A stretch of 64,000 bases of DNA, from the sequence record LC494302.1; one strand, given 5' to 3'. Position numbers and translations under genes: made by a program. Shown here piece by piece: positions 4,188 through 19,691 of the stretch (the stretch's first letter is position 1; every line of letters starts with the position of its first letter). The DNA is from Escherichia phage SP27. Under the pieces are notes generated by a model that saw only the letters and a list, made by a program, of their open reading frames with translations, was not told the origin of the DNA and did no database searches.

Positions 4188-5993
4188 ATGCAATTAGATA
4201 AATTATATACTGACGTAACGAATTTCCTCAATCAGAGCAATACTGATCTTACCAACGAAAATGCGAACAAAGATGCGAAATGCGTCAATACACACAGGGA
4301 TTTACTTGCAGGTATCCTATCTAAGCATTATTCACAAGATGTTATTCCAAATGAGCTAATGCAGTGGCATAATGATGGTTATGGTCATATTCATGATTTA
4401 GACTACTATATCAGCCCATTAACCAACTGTTGCTTAGTTAACTACCCAGATATGCTAAAAAATGGATTTACCATTGGTTGTGCCAAAATTGAAGAACCAA
4501 AGAGTTTTAGTGTAGCATGTACAGTACTGACACAGATTGTACAAGCAGTAGCTAGTTCCCAATACGGCGGTCAATCGTTGGCTCACATTGATGTCGGTTT
4601 AGAACCTTACGTTCAAAAGTCATGGGATAAGCTGTTAGAAAAACAAAAGAAATATAATCTAAGTGATGAGTTCATTGAAGAAGAATTACGAAAAGAAGTA
4701 TACGATGGATGTCAAACATTACTTTACCAGACTAATTCAATGATTAGCACTAATGGACAAGCTGCATTCATTTCTCTTAGTTTAGGGCTTAATACTTCTA
4801 AATTTGGTAAATTAATCACTGAACAGTACTTAAAAGTTCATGAGAATGGTTTAGGTAAAGATAAGATTACTCCAGTGTTTCCTAAAGTAATTTTCTTTTT
4901 ACAAGATGGTATAAACATGAATACCAATGATAGTAATTATGACCTTAAACAGTTAGCTATGCGTTGTGCATCAAAACGAATCTACCCAGACTTTGTTTCA
5001 GTTCCATTAAATCACAAAGTGACGGGAAGTAGTAGTACTGCTGTAACACCGATGGGCTGTCGTTCATTCTTAGGAAAATGGGAAGATTCAAATGGAAATG
5101 AACAATATAACGGTCGTTTCAATTTAGGCGTAGTTTCTATCAATTTACCTCTAATTGCTCTTGAGAGTGCTTCTGATGGAGAGTTTTTTGATAAGATAGA
5201 CGAGCACATGAATATTGCATATCGTGCTCAGATGAACCGTGTGGAGCGTTTAAAAGGCACTAAAGCGAAGCAGAATCCAATTTTGTTCATGGAAGGTGCA
5301 TTAGCACGTTTAGGTGCAGAAGAAACCATTGACAAGCTATTTTACAATGGTTATGCTAGTATTAGTATTGGTTATGTTGGTCTTGTTGAATGTTCAGAAA
5401 TCCTCACTGGTTCTATCAGTAAGGAGTTTTGTATGTCAGTACTGAATTATATGAAAGTAAAATGTGATGAGTTCAAAAAAGAAAGTAATATTGCTTTTAG
5501 TCTATATGGAACTCCAGCAGAGTCGCTTTGTTATAAATTTGCACGTTGCATTGAAGCAAAATATCCTTCAGTACTAAAACGTGATTACATCACAAATTCC
5601 TTCCATCAACCAGTATGGGTAGAAAGTTCTCCATTTGATAAATGGAGTTATGAAGAAGGGTTTGCTTACCTAAGTAACGGTGGAAACATCAGTTATGTTG
5701 AATCTCCAAACTTAGCAAACAACATTCAAGCACTTGAAACATTAGTTAACTATGCGTACACTAAGATACCATATTTTGGTATTAACCAACCAGTTGACCA
5801 TTGTTATGAATGTGGCTTCCAGGGTGAGTTCAGTGTCGATAAACATGGTTTCCACTGTCCTGTATGTGATAATCGTAATGAGAAGACAATCTCAGTGATT
5901 CGTCGTGTTTCTGGGTACTTGGGTAATCCTTCTTCGCGTGGCTTCAATAAAGGCAAGCAACAAGAGTGTTGCGAGCGTATTCAGCACAAATAA
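4188..5993 (+). CDS. nrdD: anaerobic ribonucleoside-triphosphate reductase (class III RNR, NrdD)
   Basis: Close similarity to T4 NrdD as recalled along the whole length (NENANKD, HDLDY, TNCCLV, SQYGG, PMGCRSF); C-terminal CxxC...CxxC zinc ribbon and glycyl-radical motif RRVSGYLGNP. Start placed at ATG 4188 (AAGGA 8 nt upstream) to match the T4 N-terminus; ORF track extends to 4125. No intron interruption. Confidence 0.9.
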   Translation: MQLDKLYTDVTNFLNQSNTDLTNENANKDAKCVNTHRDLLAGILSKHYSQDVIPNELMQWHNDGYGHIHDLDYYISPLTNCCLVNYPDMLKNGFTIGCAKIEEPKSFSVACTVLTQIVQAVASSQYGGQSLAHIDVGLEPYVQKSWDKLLEKQKKYNLSDEFIEEELRKEVYDGCQTLLYQTNSMISTNGQAAFISLSLGLNTSKFGKLITEQYLKVHENGLGKDKITPVFPKVIFFLQDGINMNTNDSNYDLKQLAMRCASKRIYPDFVSVPLNHKVTGSSSTAVTPMGCRSFLGKWEDSNGNEQYNGRFNLGVVSINLPLIALESASDGEFFDKIDEHMNIAYRAQMNRVERLKGTKAKQNPILFMEGALARLGAEETIDKLFYNGYASISIGYVGLVECSEILTGSISKEFCMSVLNYMKVKCDEFKKESNIAFSLYGTPAESLCYKFARCIEAKYPSVLKRDYITNSFHQPVWVESSPFDKWSYEEGFAYLSNGGNISYVESPNLANNIQALETLVNYAYTKIPYFGINQPVDHCYECGFQGEFSVDKHGFHCPVCDNRNEKTISVIRRVSGYLGNPSSRGFNKGKQQECCERIQHK

Positions 5994-6001
5994 GGTAAAT
6001 T

Positions 6002-6334
6002 ATGGATTTAAAGCCAATTGTGGTTAACAAATACAAAGAACCGTATGATGTGTATATTGGACGTGGGTCTAAATGGGGAAACCCATTTACCCATATTAAA
6101 GATAAACAAACCAAAGCCGAGTTCATTGTTAGTACAAGAGAAGAATCAATTGAAAAATTCAGAGAATACATTATTGAACGTATTTCTTGTGGAGAAGTTA
6201 AGATTGATGAATTACTTGAACTCGCAGGGAAACGCCTTGGTTGTTTCTGTAAACCAAAATCATGTCACGGCGATGTTCTTGTCGAAATAGTGAGTGCAAT
6301 ATTAGATGAATTACCAGACGATAATCAAGGATGA
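6002..6334 (+). CDS. conserved hypothetical protein with GRGSKWGNPF motif (DUF4326-like, family assignment from memory)
   Basis: 110-aa ORF between nrdD and nrdG; YIGRGSKWGNPF and CxCxPxxCHGD-like segments; the 3' end overlaps the nrdG start in another frame. Confidence 0.45.
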   Translation: MDLKPIVVNKYKEPYDVYIGRGSKWGNPFTHIKDKQTKAEFIVSTREESIEKFREYIIERISCGEVKIDELLELAGKRLGCFCKPKSCHGDVLVEIVSAILDELPDDNQG

Positions 6335-6776
6335 TTTAGTAAATGGAGAGGGCGTTCGCTGCTCTTTATTTGTTAGTGGGTGTTCGCACGGATGTGATGG
6401 TTGCTTCAATGAAGAAGCATGGGATTACAGAAGTGGTCAATTGTTCAGTACTGAAACAGTTGAGATTATACTACAGGAACTAAAAAAACCATATGTTAGT
6501 GGTTTGTCACTTCTAGGCGGCGATCCATTAATGAAAAAGAATATAGATGAAGTTTTAAATCTATGCAAAGTAGTTAAAGAAACTTATCCTAGTAAAACTA
6601 TTTGGTGCTGGAGTGGGTATACTTTAGATGAGATTATGAAAAATCATGCTAAAGATATACTTCAGTACTTAGATGTATTAGTTGATGGTAAGTTTATTGA
6701 GTCCGAAAAGAATTTAAAATTACCTTTCCGTGGTTCAAATAATCAAAGAATACTATATAAAAATAAAGATTTTTAG
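6306..6776 (+). CDS. nrdG: anaerobic RNR activating protein (radical SAM, NrdG)
   Basis: N-terminus MNYQTIIKDDLVNGEGVRCSLFVSGCSHGCDGCFN matches T4 NrdG as recalled and carries the CxxxCxxC radical-SAM cluster motif; 156 aa as in T4. Confidence 0.85.
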   Translation: MNYQTIIKDDLVNGEGVRCSLFVSGCSHGCDGCFNEEAWDYRSGQLFSTETVEIILQELKKPYVSGLSLLGGDPLMKKNIDEVLNLCKVVKETYPSKTIWCWSGYTLDEIMKNHAKDILQYLDVLVDGKFIESEKNLKLPFRGSNNQRILYKNKDF

Positions 6777-6779
6777 CAT

Positions 6780-6806
6780 AAGCACCCGTTGGGTGCTTTT
6801 TTATTA
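6780..6806 (+). terminator. rho-independent terminator
   Basis: agcaccc-gtt-gggtgct hairpin followed by TTTTTTATT. Confidence 0.55.
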
Positions 6807-6810
6807 TGTA

Positions 6811-6818
6811 TATAAATA
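6811..6818 (+). promoter_or_regulatory. T4-type late promoter motif TATAAATA
   Basis: Exact TATAAATA about 35 nt upstream of the first fibre-like gene, directly after a terminator. Confidence 0.45.
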
Positions 6819-6852
6819 CATTAACTAATATCTAATTTATAAGGGATATATA

Positions 6853-9549
6853 ATGTCAAAGAAAATATATGGTGGCTTAGATGTCACACATAATGTGACA
6901 GTTAATGGTAAAAGAACAATTCAAGGAATAAATGAACAAGTTTTTGATTCCAACGGTAACTTGGAATTAGATACTTATTCCAGAGATGAAGTACTAGATA
7001 TAGTAAGTATGATGCCAATCTCCCATTATGGTTCACAAAACTATCTACCTGCGGGTGTTTCTGGGGATTTCAATGGTGCATCAGAAAACCAGTCACAACG
7101 TAGAAATAAAATTTTATTAGAAAACGATGGTACACTAGTACTTTTACGTAGTGGGACAAACGGTAGTGTTGAGGGATTATTTTATTCATATTTGGCTAAC
7201 GCATTATCAGTTGATGACATGAGCCGTACAATTAACACTAGTCGTCAATACAAGCCTGGGTTTTTTGGTTCAAATAGAGTTGCGATTGGTTTATACAATA
7301 CTGATCCAAATATTTTACTCGGTAGATATATTGATACTTCTAACAGTACTAATGGTTTGTTCATATCAATTACCAATGGTACATTAGATGATAAATTGCA
7401 TACTGGTTTTTTCGTTAACCAAGCAGATATATCACCTGAAGGTGGTATTGAATATGCTATGATGGCAGAAGATGGTTCTATATATGTTTTTAACGTACTT
7501 AATGAAAATAACCAACTACAATTAGTTGTTGTTAAAGTTGTTTATAATATAAGCAATGGTACTTATACTGCAACTCGAATTACTGGATGGACTACTAAAA
7601 CATTTTATAACACGACATATTCTGCACAAAATAATATGGTTATTACTAATCAGGTAACATCAACAAATATTGCTGATAAACCTTATGCTTATGTCCCACA
7701 AAATCTACGCGGTATTGGGATTTACATGACATCAATTGATTTATATGTTGCACAGCAGCCAGGAACGCAGAATTTCCGCTTTAGAATGAACGGGGACGCT
7801 TGGTTTACAATGGCAACATATAATACACGTCCACAGCATAGTTACAGTTTTGTGTTCAATATGAGTACTAAACAATGTACATTAGATGCGGGTAATGATA
7901 TTGGTTCATACCAAGCACCATTAGTTATAACGGATACAGGTTCAGCATTAGTTCCTACTGGTAACGTTTTAAATAACGATCCATTGTATAACCATGCAAA
8001 TGCAAGGAACATTTACAGTTCTTATTTTTATTTAAATTCAGGTGAAGCATTTTGTACTGCATGTCCAAACTTAGCAGAACCATTACTTATGCAAAAAGCT
8101 AAGTTTCCTATTCAAATAGTTTATAGTATGCTGAATGTCCGTGCTGTACTTTCTACTGACTTCAAAGGTGGCATAGTTCGCCCGTCTTTTGGTTCAGCGG
8201 TTGGTTCATTTATTAATGGTGTAGAATTACTACCAGATAACAGTACTAAACAATATTCACGTGCATCAGGTAGTGGTGGATTTAGACCATCATATGCAGT
8301 TCATAAAAGTACTCCTAATTTTACATTTAAATCATTATCTTTAGGAACAATACAAGGTTATGAACCTACAGTTGAACGTGCTAATGTTGATGATAATGCA
8401 AATAATAGAATTTTTATTAGTAGTATTTCTGGGTCAACTGTCACAACCAATGGTGGTATTTTTATGGTTGGGCAACGTTATTCACAATCATTATCCTATG
8501 ATAAAAACTTAAATGGCACAGGAATTATAAGCGTTACACAATCAGTACTGGACAATTTTAGAAATACTGAATATGCCAAAGTTCTAAGTGATTGGAATTT
8601 ATCAGCACAAGCATACCGTGATATGACACTATTTGTTCCACAACAAACAGACATTCCAGCTTTTGTTATGTTGAGTACAATTACTAATGATTATAGAAAC
8701 TATATTAGAATTGCTGAAGTTAATGTCAATACTAGAGTTGGTAATATTACATCTATTACATTTAAGCGTTTAGTACTTGAGAATACGTATGGTGATAACT
8801 TTACACCAACTGGGAATGGTTCGATTGCATCTTCTTCTGTTGGTTTGACAATATATGATGGTGGTTCATTCTACTTCATTGGTGGTTCTGACCCATTATC
8901 ACATCCAACAATAGGTAATACTGCAACTCATCAATTTAGAGCATATGTAACTAAATCAACTGCACAATTTACAAGTTTTATAATTACTGGATCTCATGCC
9001 AGTTATGAACAAGGAAGTCAACCAGCAGCATTACCTGGTATTGGTTTTGGAATTTTTGAACCAATGGATTACTCAAATAAAATGACATTCAAAAAATATG
9101 GAACAACGATTGCAGACTATAATAACTGGACTGCACAAGGTAGCCCAATTAACGTAGTATCCCAGGACGTTGCTCAAGGGTTTATTGTATATTTTACAGA
9201 GGAAACACCAGTTATTCTTTCAGGTAAGTCATTTTCACTACCAGTTTCAAATATTGATTTGAGAACTATTAAGTCTAATCCAGCAAATACAACATTTTAT
9301 GTATATGTTAAATTGGAACAAGGATTGGCAAACTATTACATAACTACTGATGTTATTTCTGAAACAGGAACAACTGCATATAATATTTTTTGGATAGGTA
9401 CAATTCAAACTAATGCAATTCAAATCGAAACAATTAATATACAAAAACGTTCCCGTTTAGATATATTTGGTGCTTCACTTGAATCAGCAGGTTCATCGTT
9501 CCCAGTTAGCTACGGTCTACCATCACAAACAGGAACCATAAACTGGTAA
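6853..9549 (+). CDS. tail fibre-like structural protein A (898 aa)
   Basis: Large Ser/Thr/Asn/Gly-rich ORF behind a late-promoter motif; shares N-terminal, penultimate and C-terminal modules with the two downstream ORFs. Confidence 0.5.
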   Translation: MSKKIYGGLDVTHNVTVNGKRTIQGINEQVFDSNGNLELDTYSRDEVLDIVSMMPISHYGSQNYLPAGVSGDFNGASENQSQRRNKILLENDGTLVLLRSGTNGSVEGLFYSYLANALSVDDMSRTINTSRQYKPGFFGSNRVAIGLYNTDPNILLGRYIDTSNSTNGLFISITNGTLDDKLHTGFFVNQADISPEGGIEYAMMAEDGSIYVFNVLNENNQLQLVVVKVVYNISNGTYTATRITGWTTKTFYNTTYSAQNNMVITNQVTSTNIADKPYAYVPQNLRGIGIYMTSIDLYVAQQPGTQNFRFRMNGDAWFTMATYNTRPQHSYSFVFNMSTKQCTLDAGNDIGSYQAPLVITDTGSALVPTGNVLNNDPLYNHANARNIYSSYFYLNSGEAFCTACPNLAEPLLMQKAKFPIQIVYSMLNVRAVLSTDFKGGIVRPSFGSAVGSFINGVELLPDNSTKQYSRASGSGGFRPSYAVHKSTPNFTFKSLSLGTIQGYEPTVERANVDDNANNRIFISSISGSTVTTNGGIFMVGQRYSQSLSYDKNLNGTGIISVTQSVLDNFRNTEYAKVLSDWNLSAQAYRDMTLFVPQQTDIPAFVMLSTITNDYRNYIRIAEVNVNTRVGNITSITFKRLVLENTYGDNFTPTGNGSIASSSVGLTIYDGGSFYFIGGSDPLSHPTIGNTATHQFRAYVTKSTAQFTSFIITGSHASYEQGSQPAALPGIGFGIFEPMDYSNKMTFKKYGTTIADYNNWTAQGSPINVVSQDVAQGFIVYFTEETPVILSGKSFSLPVSNIDLRTIKSNPANTTFYVYVKLEQGLANYYITTDVISETGTTAYNIFWIGTIQTNAIQIETINIQKRSRLDIFGASLESAGSSFPVSYGLPSQTGTINW

Positions 9550-9560
9550 AGGATTACATA

Positions 9561-10148
9561 ATGGCATATAAAATAAGAGCAGACCTTAAGGCAATGCAAC
9601 AAGTAACAGTTCAGGGTAAAAGTACTGGTCTTGGTGTATTAGGTAATAATATGACTTATTACCCAACAAATTCAAATGGGGAATGTACATTCCCCTCTAT
9701 TACCAAAGATGAAGTTAACTTTATTGTCAATGGATTACCACTTACACAATACGGAGAATTGTATGATGACGCTAGTCTAAATATTACTTCATCAGGCTAT
9801 AGTCTTACATTTAACAGACAGATACCATCATTTATTGGTGGTTATCTTTATAAATTTCCAGCAGTTTCTATTTTTGCTTCAACTGTTTCATCTGGAACAC
9901 AAACACAATACGTATATGCAACGTTAGTTCTCGGTGAACCAATTTATAAAATATCACCAACACAAATACAAGAATCTGAAATTATAATGTTTATTGGAAC
10001 ACTGACCGTTGGTACAAGTGGTATTACAAATATAAACATTAATAAAGTATCCAGATTTAGTACATATAGACCTAGTGTTACACAAAAAGGTTCTTCATTC
10101 CCAGTCAGTACTGGAAAACCATCAGAAACTGGTACAATTGGTTGGTAA
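9561..10148 (+). CDS. short fibre-like protein B (195 aa) sharing the C-terminal module
   Basis: AAAGGA RBS; C-terminus KVSRFSTYRPSVTQKGSSFPVSTGKPSETGTIGW is homologous to the C-termini of the flanking large proteins. Confidence 0.45.
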   Translation: MAYKIRADLKAMQQVTVQGKSTGLGVLGNNMTYYPTNSNGECTFPSITKDEVNFIVNGLPLTQYGELYDDASLNITSSGYSLTFNRQIPSFIGGYLYKFPAVSIFASTVSSGTQTQYVYATLVLGEPIYKISPTQIQESEIIMFIGTLTVGTSGITNININKVSRFSTYRPSVTQKGSSFPVSTGKPSETGTIGW

Positions 10149-10164
10149 ATTAAGGAAAAGAAAG

Positions 10165-12894
10165 ATGTCATCAAAACGAATTATAGGAAGTGCCGAGATC
10201 CTTGGGAACTTGGCAATTGGACAAAGGTACGCTATGCGTACTTTTAATGGAACCTCACCGAATGCCAATACTGGAATTGTTCAATATCCAATATATAAGC
10301 GTTCAGAAGTTCAAAGTATTTTAGATATGTTGCCTATATCACGTGTAGGAGAAATGGATTACTTACCATTAAACGTAAGTGGATCGTATGAAGGTGCTAC
10401 ACCTATGTCAAGTGACCAAGTAGTTCAGCCAACAATTATTGAAGATGATGGAACCGCCGTTGTTCTGCGTAGCGGAACCAATGGTAGTACTAAAGGTTTT
10501 TATTATTCATTTATACGAGATCTCCGAAATATAACTATGATTTCACAAGAAAGTGTTATTTCAACCAATTCAATGTATAAACCTTCAATTATGAGTAGTA
10601 CTGAAAATATTAAGTATTTTATTGGCTCTAATGGTTATGAGATGCTTGGATGTTTAAGTACTGAAGATAATTATATTTTTACTATAACCAATGGCACATT
10701 TAACGAAATATCACATATTCATGCTAAAGTTCCAAGTACTTCTTTTGGTAATGATATGCCAATATATACACATATTGTTGGGACAAAGGTTTATATTTGG
10801 TGTAAAGATAAAAGTGTTTCTAATTTAGGATTAGCACTTTCAATTTATACAGTAGAGCTAAGTGATGTGAAAGCAAGCTCAATGGCATCATTAACAAAAG
10901 TTACTGGGTTATCAGGTCAAACTGTTCGAAACACAAGTTATTCTGCATCTAATAACATAAGAGTGTTCGATAAATTATATAGTGTTGGTACTAGCTCGGA
11001 TTCATTATTCGAAGTTACATCACCAGTATCACGTGTAGAATTTTCAGACTATACAGACTTTAACATTCAAGCCAACGTTAGTCCTGATTTATCAAAAATA
11101 CGTGTAACTTTATATCCAACACATCGAATGGTTACACCTTTGTATATTTCAACAGTTTATGGTACTGGAATAAGTTTTGTTTATAATATAAACTCAAAAT
11201 CTATGTCACTAGATGGTAGTGCTCGTGCACCTGCAACTGTTTCATATAATAATGGATTTCAAGTTTCTAACCCATTTGAAATTAATATGGTCAACTTCAC
11301 AGGGACAACTGCTGCTGGTGTATTAGGAAACGCAGGTGGTTTATGTCAAACTAAAGATGGTTTGGTATTTGCATCTAAATTTAGATGGAGTTCAACTGAA
11401 TTTTATGGTCTACAACGATATAAGGTTAGTGGGACACCGTTTGATTCATGGGTTGCCAGTACTAGAACCGCAAGTAACGTTATAAATGCAAACGTTTTAC
11501 CAGTTTTTGGTAGTGCTGTTGGTGCAAACCTTTTAGGTGTACGTTTCATCGATAATAGAAAAATATTATTAGCATGTTCTGGTACGTATGATGATGTAAC
11601 ATATAATTATAATAATACTGTTTTTTCTGAAATAGGTTCACAACCAACATATCAATATAACTCAGTTCAAAATAATACTACATTAAATGGTTTTGCACCA
11701 CAATCTAATCGTAAACAAATAGGCGATGATTTTACATACACTGCTATGATTTCTCTTGTTGATACCGATGGTAGTGTTAGATGCTATGGAACATCATTCA
11801 TTGAAGGTGTATATAAAACAAGTGGTGGATTATTAAATCCAGATACTTTAGAATTTGATGAAACATATACAATAGAACCAACGGTATTAGAATCATTAAA
11901 ACAAGATATTTTTGCTAATATAGGAAACTCTGGCATTGTTGGTACACTATCTGGACAAATTGTATTATATTATGTACCTGATAATACTTTTTCTAAATCC
12001 ATCGCAGTAGTTTCAGCATATAATCTTAACAATAACCAAGGTTATGCAATCTATGCCGAAGTTGATGTTGTATTATCTGGAACTAACATAACTTCAGCTA
12101 CATTGGTGAGTACTAGATATGAGACACTTAGTTCTGTTACAGGAATTATTACTGAAGCATATATGAAACGTTGTACTGGTCTAACAGTTGCAAAATATTC
12201 AGGATTTGGTTACATTGGTGTTGATGCTGTTCATCAATTTTCACAACCAGGTAATGCACAATTTAAGATGATGATAGCTAAAACAGTAGATGGTGTCATA
12301 ACATCAAATCGTTTTTTATCATCTAGTTACATCCAACTTGGTGCAGCATATCAACATGGTGTTATTCCTGGTGTTGGTTTTGGATATTACAATTTTCAAG
12401 ATTCTGACTATCAAACCAAATCTGTATTCAGCGTTTTTGGTACAACATCTGCTGAAATGGATGGTTTAATTAGCGGAAATGGTAGCGTTAAAGAAAAGAT
12501 TGTGGTAGTATCACAAGACGTTGCACAAGGATTCTCAGTGTACTTTACACGTGAAGTTCCGGTGTTTTTAGGTGGAATTTTCGACAGACTACCTATACAA
12601 AGTGTTGATTTAAGTACTGTAAAAAGTAACCCAGCTAATACTACGTTCTATTTGTATATACAAATGAACAGGAATACTAAGAAAGCGTCATATGTTATTA
12701 GTACTGAAACAATTGATGAATCTTTAACTAGCACTTACATTGGTAAGATAGTTACTGGAACTTCAGGAATAACTTCAATTGATACAGAAAAAGTAACTCG
12801 TTTTTTGACATATCGTCCAAGTACAACGAAACGTGGTTCAGCGATACCTGCCAGTACTGGTGTACCATCAGGTCCAGGTACACGTTGGAAATAA
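10165..12894 (+). CDS. tail fibre-like structural protein C (about 909 aa)
   Basis: Start placed at ATG 10165 (AAGGAAAAG RBS; ORF track gives 10075, overlapping the upstream gene). Shares the VVSQDVAQGF...KSNPANTTFY module and C-terminal module with protein A. Confidence 0.5.
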   Translation: MSSKRIIGSAEILGNLAIGQRYAMRTFNGTSPNANTGIVQYPIYKRSEVQSILDMLPISRVGEMDYLPLNVSGSYEGATPMSSDQVVQPTIIEDDGTAVVLRSGTNGSTKGFYYSFIRDLRNITMISQESVISTNSMYKPSIMSSTENIKYFIGSNGYEMLGCLSTEDNYIFTITNGTFNEISHIHAKVPSTSFGNDMPIYTHIVGTKVYIWCKDKSVSNLGLALSIYTVELSDVKASSMASLTKVTGLSGQTVRNTSYSASNNIRVFDKLYSVGTSSDSLFEVTSPVSRVEFSDYTDFNIQANVSPDLSKIRVTLYPTHRMVTPLYISTVYGTGISFVYNINSKSMSLDGSARAPATVSYNNGFQVSNPFEINMVNFTGTTAAGVLGNAGGLCQTKDGLVFASKFRWSSTEFYGLQRYKVSGTPFDSWVASTRTASNVINANVLPVFGSAVGANLLGVRFIDNRKILLACSGTYDDVTYNYNNTVFSEIGSQPTYQYNSVQNNTTLNGFAPQSNRKQIGDDFTYTAMISLVDTDGSVRCYGTSFIEGVYKTSGGLLNPDTLEFDETYTIEPTVLESLKQDIFANIGNSGIVGTLSGQIVLYYVPDNTFSKSIAVVSAYNLNNNQGYAIYAEVDVVLSGTNITSATLVSTRYETLSSVTGIITEAYMKRCTGLTVAKYSGFGYIGVDAVHQFSQPGNAQFKMMIAKTVDGVITSNRFLSSSYIQLGAAYQHGVIPGVGFGYYNFQDSDYQTKSVFSVFGTTSAEMDGLISGNGSVKEKIVVVSQDVAQGFSVYFTREVPVFLGGIFDRLPIQSVDLSTVKSNPANTTFYLYIQMNRNTKKASYVISTETIDESLTSTYIGKIVTGTSGITSIDTEKVTRFLTYRPSTTKRGSAIPASTGVPSGPGTRWK

Positions 12895-12898
12895 ATTT

Positions 12899-12929
12899 AA
12901 AGCTCGTCTATTGACGGGCTTTTCTTTTA
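12899..12929 (+). terminator. terminator-like hairpin overlapping a promoter
   Basis: aagctcgtc-tatt-gacgggctt stem (one G-U pair) followed by TTCTTTTAT. Confidence 0.4.
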
Positions 12930-12939
12930 TGTGTATAAT
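12911..12939 (+). promoter_or_regulatory. sigma70-like promoter (TTGACG-17-TATAAT)
   Basis: -35 TTGACG and -10 TATAAT with 17-nt spacer, about 20 nt upstream of a GGAGG RBS and ATG 12962. Confidence 0.4.
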
Positions 12940-12961
12940 TGAATAAAAATAGGAGGAAATT

Positions 12962-13528
12962 ATGGTCAAAACTTTATTACCACCACCAAAACGTCACAAA
13001 ATCAAAGAAATGAAAGAACAACGTACATTAAAGATGTACAACAATTTAGTTAAGTTACTGTGTAAAAGTCCATCGCTCAAAGCAGAGTTTAAAACTGATG
13101 ATGACCGTAAAGCACTAATTGAGATGAAATATATGCTCAGTAAAATGTCCTTTTACAAATTTGTAAAAGAATACGCATCTGACCCATTTAGTCCTCGTTG
13201 GAGAGCCAAACCAAGAGAGTATTTTTACGGTGGTTCATATACAGATCGCATTCAAGACACAGTGATGGGAGTTGAATTTGAAATCGATTATGAGCCGAAT
13301 GGTGAGGAAATCTTGCAGATTGAGAAACGTTTACCAAGTGAAGAAGAAATTTATGTTTATGCAAGAAAACTTTCAAATTACAGTTCAAGAATTACTCTAG
13401 GCAATTTAGATTCATTAATTATTTTCTATACACGTGTTGGTGTAGATAAGATGGTAACTAAACTCAATGAACTTTCATTACAACAAAAACAGATTAATGC
13501 ATACAAAGACATTACTGATTTATACTAA
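12962..13528 (+). CDS. hypothetical protein, tandem paralog 1 of 3 (188 aa)
   Basis: Strong RBS; shares the motif [D/N]D.[D/N]R[K/R].[L/I]I[E/D].KY.LSK and a W....F.G..Y segment with the next two ORFs. Confidence 0.5.
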   Translation: MVKTLLPPPKRHKIKEMKEQRTLKMYNNLVKLLCKSPSLKAEFKTDDDRKALIEMKYMLSKMSFYKFVKEYASDPFSPRWRAKPREYFYGGSYTDRIQDTVMGVEFEIDYEPNGEEILQIEKRLPSEEEIYVYARKLSNYSSRITLGNLDSLIIFYTRVGVDKMVTKLNELSLQQKQINAYKDITDLY

Positions 13529-13534
13529 TGAGGA

Positions 13535-14056
13535 ATGGATATGTTTTTTGGATCAGTTGGAAAACAAAACAGTACTTTAATTTGGCATGAAATTATCTTC
13601 AAAATTATATCTAAAAGCTACTCACTAAAGGATATTATCACCACAGATAATGATAGACGTATCCTGTTAGATGCAAAATATAAATTGAGCAAACACCCTT
13701 TACTTTCTTTAATCATTGATTACGTTAATGATTATGAATCTAGTCGTTGGAAGTGGGAAGACGGCGGTTTATTTCGTGGAAAAACATTCTACGGTGCGGA
13801 ACGATATGTTTTCAGTGATGCATCAAATGGCGTTAAGTTTGTTATTAGAAACTTTAACTCCAAAGAAAATGATTATCTTGAAAGTGGAGTGAAAGTATAT
13901 ATCGATAATAATAGCAATGTCCTAACATATGACGAATCACTAATTATGTTACAAATAATGCGTGGTGTTGAAGGTGTAAGAAACAACCTTACTAAATTGA
14001 AAATCCAGCAAAATGATATACATAATAGACAGAAAATTAAGGGTTTATATAAATGA
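13535..14056 (+). CDS. hypothetical protein, tandem paralog 2 of 3 (173 aa)
   Basis: TDNDRRILLDAKYKLSK motif shared with paralogs 1 and 3; start may be 13541 (better RBS spacing). Confidence 0.5.
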   Translation: MDMFFGSVGKQNSTLIWHEIIFKIISKSYSLKDIITTDNDRRILLDAKYKLSKHPLLSLIIDYVNDYESSRWKWEDGGLFRGKTFYGAERYVFSDASNGVKFVIRNFNSKENDYLESGVKVYIDNNSNVLTYDESLIMLQIMRGVEGVRNNLTKLKIQQNDIHNRQKIKGLYK

Positions 14057-14562
14057 TTTCATTTTTCAAAAAGAAACAAAAAGTTGATGAAACAGGATTA
14101 GAATCGTTTCTATGGACTCTTATCATCAAAAAAAGTCCATTGATAAAAGAATATGCTATCAATGATGCTAATAGAAAAACTATCATTGAATACAAATACG
14201 AATTATCAAAATGTGATCCAATCGTTTATCACTTTGCGAAGTACTGTTCAAAAAATTTATCGGATATCACAATAGACCATGAGTCAGTTCCAATGAGCTT
14301 TCCTTATGGTGATTGGGTAGATACTTTTGATATTTTTGATGGGTCCAATGGATTCAGTTTCTTTTACTCGTCAAATAAAGCAAATGTTCGTATTAAAACA
14401 GAGATAGGTTGGGCACAGCATAGCTCAAATAAAGAAGATTATAATTTACTAGCTGACGTATACCGAAGTGTGAAGAATTCAAAGGATATTGATGAAAGAA
14501 TTAAAAAGCAAAATCGTATTTCTTTATCACTTGAAACATACAAGTCAAAGTATGGTGGTTAA
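14053..14562 (+). CDS. hypothetical protein, tandem paralog 3 of 3 (169 aa)
   Basis: NDANRKTIIEYKYELSK motif shared with paralogs 1 and 2; ATGA coupling with the upstream gene. Confidence 0.5.
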   Translation: MISFFKKKQKVDETGLESFLWTLIIKKSPLIKEYAINDANRKTIIEYKYELSKCDPIVYHFAKYCSKNLSDITIDHESVPMSFPYGDWVDTFDIFDGSNGFSFFYSSNKANVRIKTEIGWAQHSSNKEDYNLLADVYRSVKNSKDIDERIKKQNRISLSLETYKSKYGG

Positions 14563-16195: not shown

Positions 16196-16272
16196 CATAT
16201 ACAAGTGTAATGGTACTAAAAATGCCATTACACTCAATAAATACTCAATATAAATTAACACAAGGATTAAGT

Positions 16273-16401
16273 ATGGCACAACAAATTTTCACAGATATCC
16301 ACACTACCGGAGTTATTAAATTTCAAAATAATTTTTCAGGTGCAACTGGTGTAGACATTAAAAATGATGGTTTTAACATTGTCAGTACTCGGATCTATTG
16401 A
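16273..16401 (+). CDS. small ORF (42 aa), possibly the 5' part of a frameshifted gene
   Basis: ATG 16273 with AAGGA 6 nt upstream; ends inside the start of the next ORF, which is in the +1 frame. Confidence 0.25.
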   Translation: MAQQIFTDIHTTGVIKFQNNFSGATGVDIKNDGFNIVSTRIY

Positions 16402-16900
16402 TGGTGAAGATAGTTCTCTTAGTGATTCTGTGATTGCATCATTCGGAACTAATAAAAACAGTTCTTTTATTATATCTGGATGGACTGGAATGACTGATTC
16501 TGAAAATAATGTTAAGATAAAAGCTAAATCTACTAACGAGAATCATGAAACAGAATGGGTAACATTATATGATAGTGCAAGTAATAAGTTATATAATGTA
16601 CTAAGTTCTAATAACATTTTAATTAATCCACTGTCGGGTAATGCTGTTTTTAATATTAATTTATCTGATAGAAATACTACTATTTCGATTGGTGCGGCTC
16701 CTACTGAAGTTTATTCAATTACCATCCTATTAACACAACAAACAGGTTCAAACCTAGTTAATTGGGGTTCTAATGTTAAATGGTCATATAACAGACCAGT
16801 TGTTCTTTCTTATGAAATTGGCGAAAAAGATATTATTTCATTAGAAACATATGATAAAGGAGTTACATGGTACGGTGCATTAATTAGAGCAGGAGTATGA
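16364..16900 (+). CDS. hypothetical Ser/Thr/Asn-rich protein (178 aa)
   Basis: ORF lacking a clear RBS at its ATG and overlapping the upstream small ORF by 38 nt; composition resembles virion fibre/decoration proteins. Confidence 0.4.
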   Translation: MMVLTLSVLGSIDGEDSSLSDSVIASFGTNKNSSFIISGWTGMTDSENNVKIKAKSTNENHETEWVTLYDSASNKLYNVLSSNNILINPLSGNAVFNINLSDRNTTISIGAAPTEVYSITILLTQQTGSNLVNWGSNVKWSYNRPVVLSYEIGEKDIISLETYDKGVTWYGALIRAGV

Positions 16901-16901
16901 T

Positions 16902-19691
16902 ATGTTAAACAATAATATTGATAATATTGTACAACTTCTTTATGGGCATCACAAATTTATTGAAAGAAATACTGGTGATACAATAGACCCAACAGTACAA
17001 CATTATGTGGTGAATAATCAGGGTGTTTTGGCGAACAACCGTCATTTTATTAACTATTCTGCAATGGAAGGTCAACCAAACGGTGACGGGACAACAGAAG
17101 GTCAAAGTCTATTAATTTTAGGATACATTTATGCGTATCTGGCAACAAATGATCCAATGTTTTTAGATAAAGCCAAATGGTACTGGGATGCATATCATCA
17201 GTACTTTTATGCTGGGCGTGAATTACCAGACCCACCAACCCCACTGCAATGTAACTGGATAGTTAATGCCAAAGAACCGATTTTGGCTAACTGGCCTTTA
17301 GCTGATGATGGATGGCCTACACATGGTGGTTTCAAGGGTGTAGAATTTACATTTACAAATGGACAATGTAAAATACCACATGGTGCACCTTATTATGGTC
17401 AGTTCTTGGATAAAGTAACATTTGCATTCAAAGGTGCTTTAGCATGGAACCAAATAAATGCGTCAGTAAAAGCATTATTACCAGATGGTAGTGTTGATTG
17501 GGATACACCAGGTGAACAATATGATGTTGACTGGATTATCGATTTCATGGGTAGAAAAATCGACTGGGATGGTAATATTTTAGCAGAAGGTTTTGACGAA
17601 TCTGAAAAAGGAACTGTTCAATTAAAGAATACAACAATTAATGGTGTATATAAATTAAATTTTGCAAATCGTCAACCAGTAGAATATGGTGGTGTGATAA
17701 TTCAACGAAATGAAATGCAACACAACCGCCCTCTTCATGTTCCAATTGATTTGGAATTTGCTGATAACGCATCAGATGCAGAATTATGGTTTAGTGATGC
17801 TTCTTATTTGTTATATAAAATAACAAAAGAAAGAAAACATTATTTGGGTTGGAAATGTTCACTACTAACGTGTTATGCTTATGGTGATATTGACTCCAGA
17901 GATAAATTTTTCAGACAAAGTACAATTGTAACCACACCATTCACTGATGGTATTTCCTATGAATATTTTTATCCAAGTGATGCTATTGCTAAGTTTGGTA
18001 GAAATTCTCTAGGATATATTACTATCAGGCAAGACCAAAGTGCACAAAGTACTATGGAACAACAAGCTATTTGGTTCAGGGTCAATGCTGATTCTAAATT
18101 ACTTGTAGACTATGGTGGTGTATGTGATGATGGTAAGCCGTTATCATTTAAACCAGTACTGGAATTGTCAAAAACAAAAAATGACCATGATGTTGTTCGT
18201 TATCGTTGTGGCTTACCGGAAAGTAAAGACCAAAATATCACACATTCATTAACACCTTTAAGTGCATTTGTTAGAGAAAAGAAAGCAGATGGTTCCCCTT
18301 ATATAATTGCTGATAGTAGAATTGTTGTTCCTTATGGTGCAGCTACGTCCGAAATGATATATAGTACTGATATATTAGTTACACGCCGCGATACCATTAA
18401 TCAGTTAGTTTGTGGTGAAGATGATGGTGCTGTTATTGGATTTTGGCTATTAGCAACAAATAAGTCTGAAGTTAAATCTTTTACCTATCGTTCATATGAA
18501 GATGATTACAATATAAGAATTGTAGATGATAATGGTTGGAGATGGTGGTGGATGATTCCTGCAACACACGGGGAATGGACTACAATCACACTAAGTTCCG
18601 ATACATTACGTTTATCTGGGTATCAGCCAAATCATCCAAGTTCTGACCCAAGACCAGATGCACCAGTTTATAGTGAACTAGAAGATATTACTATTTTACC
18701 TGATACAACCCCAGTAGATGGTGTTGCTGCAATAATTGATTGGTATTGTATTAATGACATTCCAGAATTATACACGGATGCTGACGGTGATGACTATACT
18801 ATGACATTTTCAATAACAATTGCAGGTGAATCACCATATACTGCACAGTTAGGGGATTGTGTAATCAAGGATTATTTGTTAAACTCATTGCATTACACAC
18901 CAGGAACAATACCATTTTCTAACATCACTGACCCGTATGCGAACCAGTATTCAGGATGGCGTGGTTTACCGTATCCAGGTTATCAATATCCTGTGATATA
19001 TTGTTTTAAAGACCAGCCGGTAGATAACACACGCTTAGGAAACATGTTAAGCTTTATGAAAGATTCCCAAACATGGTTTACTCAACAATTCGGTACTGTT
19101 GGTCCGTGTGCACAAGCATATGTTTGGAACCGCTGGGATAACTTAAAATATGGTGAACCAGATACATTTACTATGCTACATTGGGGTGATCAAGCATGGA
19201 GTGGGTATGAACCACGTGCGTTCTTTGGGGCTGCCAGAGCATGGCAAGAACTCGCAGAGAGAGGAATTGAACCACCAGCAGATCTTGTTGAATTTTGTGA
19301 GAATTGGATTCACTTTTTAATTCAATTTCAAAAAGATAATGATGGTCGTTCACCAACAATCTTCAATAAAGATGGCACAGTTGAAGGTCCAGATTGGGAC
19401 TTTACAGGTCATATGTGTGGGTTGTGGTTAGCTGGGGCTTGTGCTGCTGGATTGGCTGGATGTAAAATAGAAGGTCTAACAACACTCGCTGATAACTTAG
19501 TTCTCGAACTTCAAAAGAATTATGTTATTGTAAATCCAGGTTCACCAATGAATGGTTCATGGAGTCCAGCAGTTAGAGAAGGTACTGATAATGGTATGTT
19601 TTTTGGTTTCTGGGCAGGTGAGATTATGCGTGGATTGGGATTATACTCAATGTACCGCTTAAACACACCAAATCGTTTCCGTGATTTATAA
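16902..19691 (+). CDS. large hypothetical protein (929 aa)
   Basis: Long uninterrupted ORF, Trp/Tyr/Gly-rich (WRWWWM, CGLWLAGACAAGLAGC); no catalytic motif recognised. Confidence 0.55.
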   Translation: MLNNNIDNIVQLLYGHHKFIERNTGDTIDPTVQHYVVNNQGVLANNRHFINYSAMEGQPNGDGTTEGQSLLILGYIYAYLATNDPMFLDKAKWYWDAYHQYFYAGRELPDPPTPLQCNWIVNAKEPILANWPLADDGWPTHGGFKGVEFTFTNGQCKIPHGAPYYGQFLDKVTFAFKGALAWNQINASVKALLPDGSVDWDTPGEQYDVDWIIDFMGRKIDWDGNILAEGFDESEKGTVQLKNTTINGVYKLNFANRQPVEYGGVIIQRNEMQHNRPLHVPIDLEFADNASDAELWFSDASYLLYKITKERKHYLGWKCSLLTCYAYGDIDSRDKFFRQSTIVTTPFTDGISYEYFYPSDAIAKFGRNSLGYITIRQDQSAQSTMEQQAIWFRVNADSKLLVDYGGVCDDGKPLSFKPVLELSKTKNDHDVVRYRCGLPESKDQNITHSLTPLSAFVREKKADGSPYIIADSRIVVPYGAATSEMIYSTDILVTRRDTINQLVCGEDDGAVIGFWLLATNKSEVKSFTYRSYEDDYNIRIVDDNGWRWWWMIPATHGEWTTITLSSDTLRLSGYQPNHPSSDPRPDAPVYSELEDITILPDTTPVDGVAAIIDWYCINDIPELYTDADGDDYTMTFSITIAGESPYTAQLGDCVIKDYLLNSLHYTPGTIPFSNITDPYANQYSGWRGLPYPGYQYPVIYCFKDQPVDNTRLGNMLSFMKDSQTWFTQQFGTVGPCAQAYVWNRWDNLKYGEPDTFTMLHWGDQAWSGYEPRAFFGAARAWQELAERGIEPPADLVEFCENWIHFLIQFQKDNDGRSPTIFNKDGTVEGPDWDFTGHMCGLWLAGACAAGLAGCKIEGLTTLADNLVLELQKNYVIVNPGSPMNGSWSPAVREGTDNGMFFGFWAGEIMRGLGLYSMYRLNTPNRFRDL

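Follow-up and report, generated by a model that had tools for sequence, protein, structure and literature searches.

A cassette of three paralogous genes in Escherichia phage SP27 and related jumbo phages, encoding candidate host-recognition virion proteins with shoulder-like ends

Three consecutive genes, here called A, B and C, occupy positions 6853–12894 of a 64,000-nucleotide stretch of Escherichia phage SP27 DNA (record LC494302.1), the whole of which is referred to below as the window. The phage is an Asteriusvirus jumbo coliphage of the PBECO4/121Q/phAPEC6 type. At the nucleotide (nt) level, the 6-kb region is 99.4–99.8% identical to that of other Asteriusvirus jumbo coliphages (vB_EcoM_E9.1, PBECO4, phAPEC6 and others) and 94% identical to that of 121Q. 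The cassette is conserved in 34 Asteriusvirus-like records, and its products are annotated as hypothetical proteins in every matching record. A preliminary description of the sequence had placed three open reading frames (ORFs) with a shared C-terminal module at this locus; both the ORFs and the module proved real by tblastn and by their conservation in these records. The genes, with product lengths in amino acids (aa), are:

Gene A, 6853..9549, plus strand: 898 aa, the position-1 paralogue; gp499 of 121Q and gp323c of phAPEC6.
Gene B, 9561..10148, plus strand: 195 aa, the position-2 paralogue without propeller; gp500 of 121Q, unannotated in phAPEC6.
Gene C, 10165..12894, plus strand: 909 aa, the position-3 paralogue; gp501 of 121Q, unannotated in phAPEC6.

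The start of gene C was placed at the ATG at 10165, which is preceded by a AAGGAAAAG ribosome-binding site; counted from this codon, homology of C to A and B begins at residue 1–2. A mechanically called ORF of 939 aa, starting at a GTG at 10075 inside B, was rejected because ATG 10165 has both the ribosome-binding site and the homology. In 121Q, the annotated start of C lies 23 codons 3' of the ATG supported by the alignment to A and B. In phAPEC6 (MK817115), intact B and C ORFs are present at 5709–6293 and 6313–9039, neither of them annotated, and a spurious 37-aa ORF, gp322c, is annotated inside C. Since B and C are unannotated in phAPEC6, they were absent from the search set of its published structural proteome and could not have been detected there.

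Sequence comparison confirmed that the three proteins resemble one another far beyond chance. Local tblastn aligned A with C over 945 columns at 27.5% identity (E 6e-61), residues 77–195 of B with the C termini of C (43%, E 3e-22) and A (36%, E 5e-15), and residues 1–65 of B with the N terminus of A (35%, E 2e-5). Because the alignment of A and C runs over their full length, they are full-length paralogues with more in common than a shared tail; the preliminary description, which gave the large pair a common C-terminal module, an upstream block and related N-termini, was right about the homology and understated it. B consists of both conserved ends, the first ~65 and the last ~120 residues of A and C, joined by a short linker. 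The alignments and tblastn thus bear out the proposal of a stand-alone middle gene, made up of the conserved parts by themselves. The shared C-terminal region, earlier put at ~50 residues, extends over ~120 aa plus a ~25-aa tail, and B shares the N terminus as well. No further paralogue of A, B or C was found elsewhere in the 64-kb window by local tblastn.

Searches against the PHROG families gave full-length, significant matches of A and C to phrog_3573 (6.6e-274 and 4.7e-267) and of B to phrog_26864 (4.4e-115). PHROG families 3573, 26864 and 7449, which hold the relatives of A, B and C, are jumbo-phage families with no assigned function. No match at E ≤ 1 was found for the three proteins in Pfam-A or NCBIfam, whether single sequences or profiles were used, and sequence searches of the Protein Data Bank (PDB) with both returned only a non-significant match to phiKZ gp49. 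The family is uncharacterised, with no fold, function or assembly model assigned in the databases and literature searched.

Structure prediction and alignment divide the proteins as follows:

A residues 1–60, 6853..7032, plus strand: conserved N-terminal segment common to B and C, with short strands and a helix at 44–51.
A residues 61–760, 7033..9132, plus strand: β-propeller body of ~twelve 4-stranded blades, probably two propellers; the variable "head".
A residues 761–872, 9133..9468, plus strand: conserved β-sandwich module, shoulder-like.
A residues 873–898, 9469..9546, plus strand: conserved Gly/Ser/Pro-rich tail (...AGSSFPVSYGLPSQTGTINW), unstructured in the monomer model.
C residues 775–909, 12487..12891, plus strand: shoulder-like module and conserved tail (...RGSAIPASTGVPSGPGTRWK).

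The AlphaFold2 (AF2) monomer model of A, computed from a 41-sequence alignment, has a predicted local distance difference test score (pLDDT) of 86.5 and a predicted template-modelling score (pTM) of 0.80. Residues ~60–760 are predicted to be all-beta, with ~twelve four-stranded blades, and residues 762–872 to form a separate β-sandwich. Residues 1–60 and 873–898 have low model confidence (pLDDT <50 in the tail), and the N-terminal segment is probably ordered only within an assembly. The core of the B model has a pLDDT of ~90, and the last ~25 residues are unstructured in both monomer models. All structural neighbours of the A body are globular propellers. The AF2 model of A shows a compact propeller fold with no fibrous shaft, and no segment of coiled-coil-like composition was found, so the earlier label "fibre-like" does not fit. 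The propeller fold is one shared with sialidases and glycoside hydrolases; assignment of A or C as a sialidase was rejected, as neither contains an Asp-box or an RIP motif or has a Pfam match.

The predicted fold of the module matches the baseplate-docking shoulder domain of receptor-binding proteins (RBPs) and of TssK: two ~4-stranded sheets and a helix, recognisable by structure comparison. The assignment in A follows from the B model, in which the homologous module matches shoulder domains. The structural matches were the cyanophage A-1(L) tail fibre (8.1), phage 1358 RBP (7.7), SPP1 gp22 (7.5), TssK (6.8, 5.8 and 5.2), HFTV1 gp42 (6.5 and 6.4) and a phi812 baseplate protein (6.0). The topology of the known shoulders, an N-terminal domain followed by neck and head, was not found here, where the sandwich lies at ~761–872 of 898 residues and the head precedes it; nor was there a match at E ≤ 1 to the Pfam families of TssK or the lactococcal RBPs. 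As a lead only, positions 78–159 of the module profile align with the above-mentioned phiKZ gp49 (PDB 9xqs chain M) at a non-significant E of 0.48; the aligned region spans the sandwich core, and an ES..MFIG motif is common to both. In the phiKZ baseplate, this 138-aa protein forms the hexagonal ring on the inner side.

Among A orthologues, mean identity is 60% in the N terminus, 45% in the body, 67% in the module and 75% in the tail, the most conserved segment. That the module is more conserved than the body, and is predicted to have a shoulder-like fold, favours the earlier suggestion of a shared attachment or assembly element. It disfavours the alternative suggestion of a common receptor-binding tip, since the module is among the most conserved parts and has the fold of a docking domain. 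The conserved C terminus, which had been thought unusual, is indeed conserved and is better described as one of two conserved termini, N and C, flanking a variable inserted head.

The genes are under purifying selection, with ratios of nonsynonymous to synonymous divergence (dN/dS) against 121Q of 0.041 for A, 0.046 for C and 0.059 for B, the last resting on just 6 differences. Nucleotide identity to 121Q is 98–99% in the flanks, in B and in the modules, falls to 85–93% across the A body and dips to 92–97% within the C body. The A body (6853–9200, compared with 12001–14350 of the 121Q locus L001) is a local divergence hotspot with a dS of 0.59, against 0.04–0.10 in the flanking genes, B and most of C. 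This suggests that the A head was replaced by recombination between Asteriusvirus lineages, with breakpoints near the conserved ends; a conserved anchor with a divergent, exchangeable head is the pattern expected of host-recognition proteins. The idea that B is a decaying pseudogene was rejected: its 195-aa length is kept across clusters down to 46% identity and in Salmonella phage Munch, many other stand-alone representatives exist, and its dN/dS, on those 6 differences, is low.

The order nrdD-nrdG followed by three paralogues is conserved in four sequenced relatives:

GAP32: 143/144/145, 902/912/916 aa.
CBB: 147/148/149, 902/916/916 aa.
Yersinia phage fHe-Yen9-04: g137–139, annotated "minor tail protein", 928/895/946 aa.
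Salmonella phage Munch: 169/170/171, 897/195/921 aa.

Each position in the triad has its own tail: ...LD.FGASLE.AGSSFPVSYGLPS..G.INW at position 1, ...YRPS.TQ.GS.FPVS.G.P...G.I.W at position 2 and ...FLTYR.STTKRGSAIP.STGVPSG.GTRW at position 3. These position-specific tails, together with neighbour-joining trees, indicate that the triplication is older than the divergence of these genera. The B profile finds its best match in GAP32_144, for the N end (1.8e-19) and the C end (5e-46) alike, which identifies B as a position-2 paralogue whose propeller has been lost. Since other lineages have their short chain at position 1, head loss has occurred independently at more than one position. Rak2-like lineages always retain the N segment, module and tail.

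A profile scan of IMG/VR found three, or two times three, adjacent same-strand module genes in 14 of 14 loci, in the patterns L-S-L, L-L-L, S-L-L and S-L-M (L, long; S, short; M, medium) and as two consecutive L-S-S triads. RAY (gp18/19/20) and Miami (gp056/057/058) have three module genes each, as does an EL-like phage when a divergent gene is accepted as the third. The chimallivirus clusters of these homologues adjoin baseplate-spike and tail-fibre genes, and the module is internal in the larger members. Over the whole library, the module profile retrieved 537 representatives of 50%-identity clusters (316 at E ≤ 1e-10), mainly of ~170–250 aa and ~900–1000 aa, with some of 1100–2500 aa.

Two further observations concern the composition of these clusters. 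The two consecutive L-S-S triads occupy ~6.8–16.2 kb of each of four IMG/VR contigs (L020, L021, L022 and L024), and the six chains of this lineage all begin with a related stretch of ~100 aa (BLASTP E 1e-4 to 1e-15) that appears to be helical and is reminiscent of the basal six-helix bundle of the phiKZ fibres. Chimallivirus-type clusters may also contain an extra ~250-aa protein (L029 5082–5825, EL-like; L027 5109–5861, Aeromonas phage D3), homologous not to the module but to the N-terminal ~250 aa of the long module proteins (E 1e-6 to 3e-9), and thus a second kind of "end-only" paralogue.

Sequence signals around the cassette bear on its expression:

6780..6798, plus strand: terminator-like hairpin and T-run (8 pairs, 5 GC, then TTTTATTATG), which ends the nrdD-nrdG unit 5' of the cassette.
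6811..6818, plus strand: TATAAATA, the T4-type late-promoter consensus, 35 nt 5' of the A start codon.
12899..12922, plus strand: terminator-like hairpin and T-run (10 pairs, 5 GC), which closes the cassette.

The intergenic gaps within the cassette measure 11 and 16 nt, and in Munch terminators are annotated at both equivalent places, before and after the cassette. The exact copy of TATAAATA is the only one in the window, against 10.2 ± 3.2 expected, and the ATAAATA core is four-fold depleted, with 9 copies observed and 35.8 ± 6.2 expected. The other core copy of note (16237–16243) lies 5' of an annotated tail-fibre gene pair at 16364–19691. The T4-type late-promoter motif therefore looks as if it were avoided genome-wide except at a few intergenic sites, including those of the cassette and the tail-fibre pair. 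According to the CBB paper, structural genes of CBB, GAP32 and related phages are preceded by ATAAATA, and these phages have a gp55-like sigma factor. Late co-transcription of A, B and C from this putative promoter is likely.

Published mass spectrometry (MS) of purified particles places members of the family in virions. The phAPEC6 counterpart of A, gp323c, is in the structural proteome of that phage with 4 unique peptides and 5.6% coverage. In the comparison table of the CBB paper, GAP32_144 (the orthologue at position 2) and GAP32_145 (that at position 3) are recorded as found by GAP32 MS; the same authors list CBB_147/148/149 as mutual homologues. In the chimallivirus Goslar, three adjacent genes encode gp026, an 867-aa homologue with the module at its C terminus, gp027, and gp028, a 169-aa stand-alone module that matches phrog_26864. 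Low/mid/high estimates of their copy numbers from quantitative virion MS are 8.5/12.8/20.1, 9.2/13.8/21.6 and 9.5/14.3/22.4, respectively, so the three products are near equimolar at ~13 copies each per virion; gp028 was detected with 61% sequence coverage. The Goslar homologues stop directly after the sandwich, without a tail. The preliminary description had been prepared to abandon a structural role should virion proteomics fail to detect any of the proteins, and the detections in phAPEC6, GAP32 and Goslar spare it that outcome. Membership in the DUF7941 filament family of Goslar was considered and rejected, as A, B and C have no Pfam match and gp026–028 are not among the listed DUF7941 proteins.

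The data presented above have led us to propose, with slightly better than even confidence, that A, B and C form a late-transcribed cassette of host-recognition virion proteins whose ends dock and oligomerise and whose propellers recognise the host, probably at the peripheral baseplate or tail. Each chain would contribute its ~60-aa N segment, ~110-aa C-terminal β-sandwich and ~25-aa Gly/Ser/Pro tail to a shoulder-like docking element, in which the N-terminal helix and the C-terminal sandwich may constitute one split domain. The ~700-aa propeller body between the ends of A and C would be a variable head that presumably binds or cleaves surface carbohydrate, and B would keep the docking parts only. 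The three chains would co-assemble, a 1:1:1 heterotrimer with a pseudo-threefold shoulder being the favoured but unproven arrangement; such a complex would carry two heads here, three in GAP32-like phages and one in Goslar. Co-assembly at 1:1:1 is favoured because the triad is near-universal, the headless chains are under purifying selection and the Goslar products are equimolar. A stricter version, in which the heterotrimer is obligate, each chain is one third of a split shoulder, and deletion of the insert in any chain tunes the number of heads from three to one, is plausible at somewhat less than an even chance.

Several observations weigh against this proposal. The cassette lies directly after nrdD and nrdG, with a nucleotidyltransferase gene also among its nucleotide-metabolism neighbours, and away from the main block of structural genes. 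The virion evidence for A itself consists of 4 peptides, with B and C outside the phAPEC6 search set. The ~13 equimolar copies in Goslar would also fit six homotrimers of each protein (18 copies; high estimates 20–22), and Goslar gp027 (161 aa) has only its N-terminal ~66 aa in common with the family and no detectable module. Just two module genes are detectable in Aeromonas phage D3. Finally, the N-terminal segment is of low confidence in both the A and B models, so that the split shoulder is an inference, as are trimerisation and the contacts among A, B and C.

Comparison with known systems shows both the likeness and the novelty of the proposed architecture. The module resembles lactococcal phage p2 ORF18, the phage 1358 RBP and SPP1 gp22 at the level of fold, with no sequence similarity. 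As reviewed for p2 and 1358, the shoulder consists of two 4-stranded sheets and a helix and takes up an arm-like extension of Dit in the cavity of its trimer, a mode also found in TssK with loops of TssG. In p2 and 1358, however, the shoulder is N-terminal and contiguous and is followed by a neck and a jelly-roll head, whereas in A and C the sandwich is C-terminal and the propellers are inserted between the N segment and the sandwich. The p2 and 1358 RBPs are homotrimers of siphophages; here, three distinct paralogous chains of jumbo myophages would make up the trimer. TssK, which like IglD has an N-terminal shoulder domain, continues with a helical neck and a C-terminal head and is a homotrimer of a secretion system rather than a virion; neither Pfam nor sequence searches link it to A, B or C.

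Another likeness is to phiKZ gp131–gp135, adjacent jumbo-phage paralogues with shared terminal segments and a β-propeller. Three copies of gp131 with gp133, gp134 and gp135 form a hetero-oligomeric base on the phiKZ peripheral baseplate, and the propeller is thought to bind the host. Unlike A and C, these proteins have their shared part at the N terminus, with a six-helix bundle, and a seven-bladed propeller at the C terminus. Fifteen phiKZ proteins (gp126–135, 139, 145, 146, 157 and 165) compared with the module and full-length profiles by hmmsearch --max and BLASTP all gave E >0.1, and no homologue of the A/B/C family was found in the tested ~88 of 280 kb of phiKZ. Two other phiKZ proteins, gp26 and gp27, were rejected for lack of BLASTP similarity; gp27, which frames the outer baseplate, equals A in length (898 aa) by coincidence. 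The true sequence homologues are the members of PHROG 3573/26864/7449, which have the same triad layout and are virion-associated where tested: GAP32_143–145, CBB_147–149, fHe-Yen9-04 g137–139 and Goslar gp026/gp028, with RAY gp18–20 and a 1727-aa protein of SPN3US among the further members.

A serious rival, if on balance a doubtful one, is that A, B and C are three separate homotrimers (or monomers) that occupy three tail or baseplate sites through their like modules, B being a headless adaptor or plug. The shoulder proteins p2 RBP, 1358 RBP and TssK are all homotrimers, SPP1 gp22 provides a precedent for a stand-alone shoulder-like protein, the Goslar range of 8.5–22 is compatible with 18 copies each, and the position-specific tails could encode three docking sites. 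What this explains less well is that exactly three module-bearing chains are kept in most of the lineages examined while the head may be lost at any position, and it gives no reason for headless stubs to be held under purifying selection at equimolar levels.

That B is instead a non-structural assembly chaperone of the tail-fibre-assembly type, which through its mimicry of the ends of A and C would template their folding or trimerisation, we consider very unlikely. Fibre chaperones are usually encoded by a small gene with a large tail-protein gene on either side, and B, unannotated in phAPEC6, has been outside any Asteriusvirus proteome search. However, the B orthologue GAP32_144, full-length, is found in GAP32 virions; the stand-alone Goslar gp028 is in virions in amounts equimolar with its long paralogue and at the high coverage given above; and other lineages have the short chain at position 1, or have two short chains among the three.

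Still less credence is given to tail fibres with either a cleaved intramolecular C-terminal chaperone or a common receptor-binding tip on different shafts. Conservation of a C-terminal block among paralogous tail proteins is a typical trait of Peptidase_S74-type chaperone domains, neither monomer model gives the last ~25 residues any structure, and proteomic coverage (5.6% for A) is too low to show the C terminus. Set against this, the Pfam searches at E ≤ 1 returned no match, Peptidase_S74 included, for any of the three proteins, which leaves the cleaved chaperone of the preliminary description unsupported. The A model has neither a shaft nor a coiled-coil-like segment, and B has no shaft to fold. 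The module has the fold of a docking domain, not of a chaperone or tip, and ranks among the most conserved parts, whereas receptor-binding tips normally vary most; the Goslar homologues, moreover, end right after the sandwich. A role for A, B and C as non-structural enzymes or lectins with propellers, active in the infected cell or lysate and co-purifying with virions, is similarly improbable: the cassette does lie among nucleotide-metabolism genes (nrdD, nrdG, nucleotidyltransferase), and the phAPEC6 virion list does hold evident contaminants (thymidylate synthase, RecA, single-stranded DNA-binding protein), but detection in three independent virion proteomes of distant phages, the late-promoter-like motif 5' of the cassette, the docking-domain fold and the chimallivirus clusters adjoining baseplate and tail-fibre genes all argue otherwise.

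The surroundings of the cassette were also compared among relatives. Directly 3' of it lie three consecutive small paralogues of 188, 173 and 169 aa (window 12962–14562, plus strand), which belong to phrog_18641 and phrog_7868, families with no assigned function, and match one another pairwise at E 4e-15 to 1e-3. A strong sigma70-like promoter match (12911–12939, TTGACG-17-TATAAT, 11/12) is found 5' of these genes. Munch also has three small genes 3' of its triad, and GAP32 has one similarly sized gene at that place, followed by a tRNA-His guanylyltransferase gene. For RaK2, supplementary S5 of the CBB paper lists no triad homologue in its comparison, and the equivalent stretch, bounded by PhoH and the nrd genes, contains the RaK2 branched tail-fibre/depolymerase cluster, ORF526–534. 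Such a gene order suggests that phages of this group use the PhoH-nrd region as a "slot" for host recognition.

The fold, the triad rule and the headless paralogue were not described in the literature searched. If the heterotrimer-type cassette proposed here is correct, it would represent a widespread, undescribed host-recognition design in jumbo phages, spanning the Rak2-like group and the Chimalliviridae, and would add jumbo myophages, with a novel topology, to the known range of the p2-RBP/TssK shoulder fold. It would give three "hypothetical" genes and at least 537 clusters at 50% identity a concrete architecture of docking ends and swappable propeller heads, and would explain the small middle gene as a headless subunit, not a remnant. 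The genomic rule that module genes come in threes would point to a hetero-oligomeric receptor-binding complex. Jumbo-phage tails contain many unassigned proteins, and neither Goslar nor phAPEC6 has a resolved peripheral baseplate; the complex would be a candidate for the unassigned peripheral-baseplate density of Goslar and for the tail decorations of phAPEC6, in which tail and collar decorations have been seen. The propeller bodies would then be likely host-range determinants for the engineering of therapeutic coliphages.

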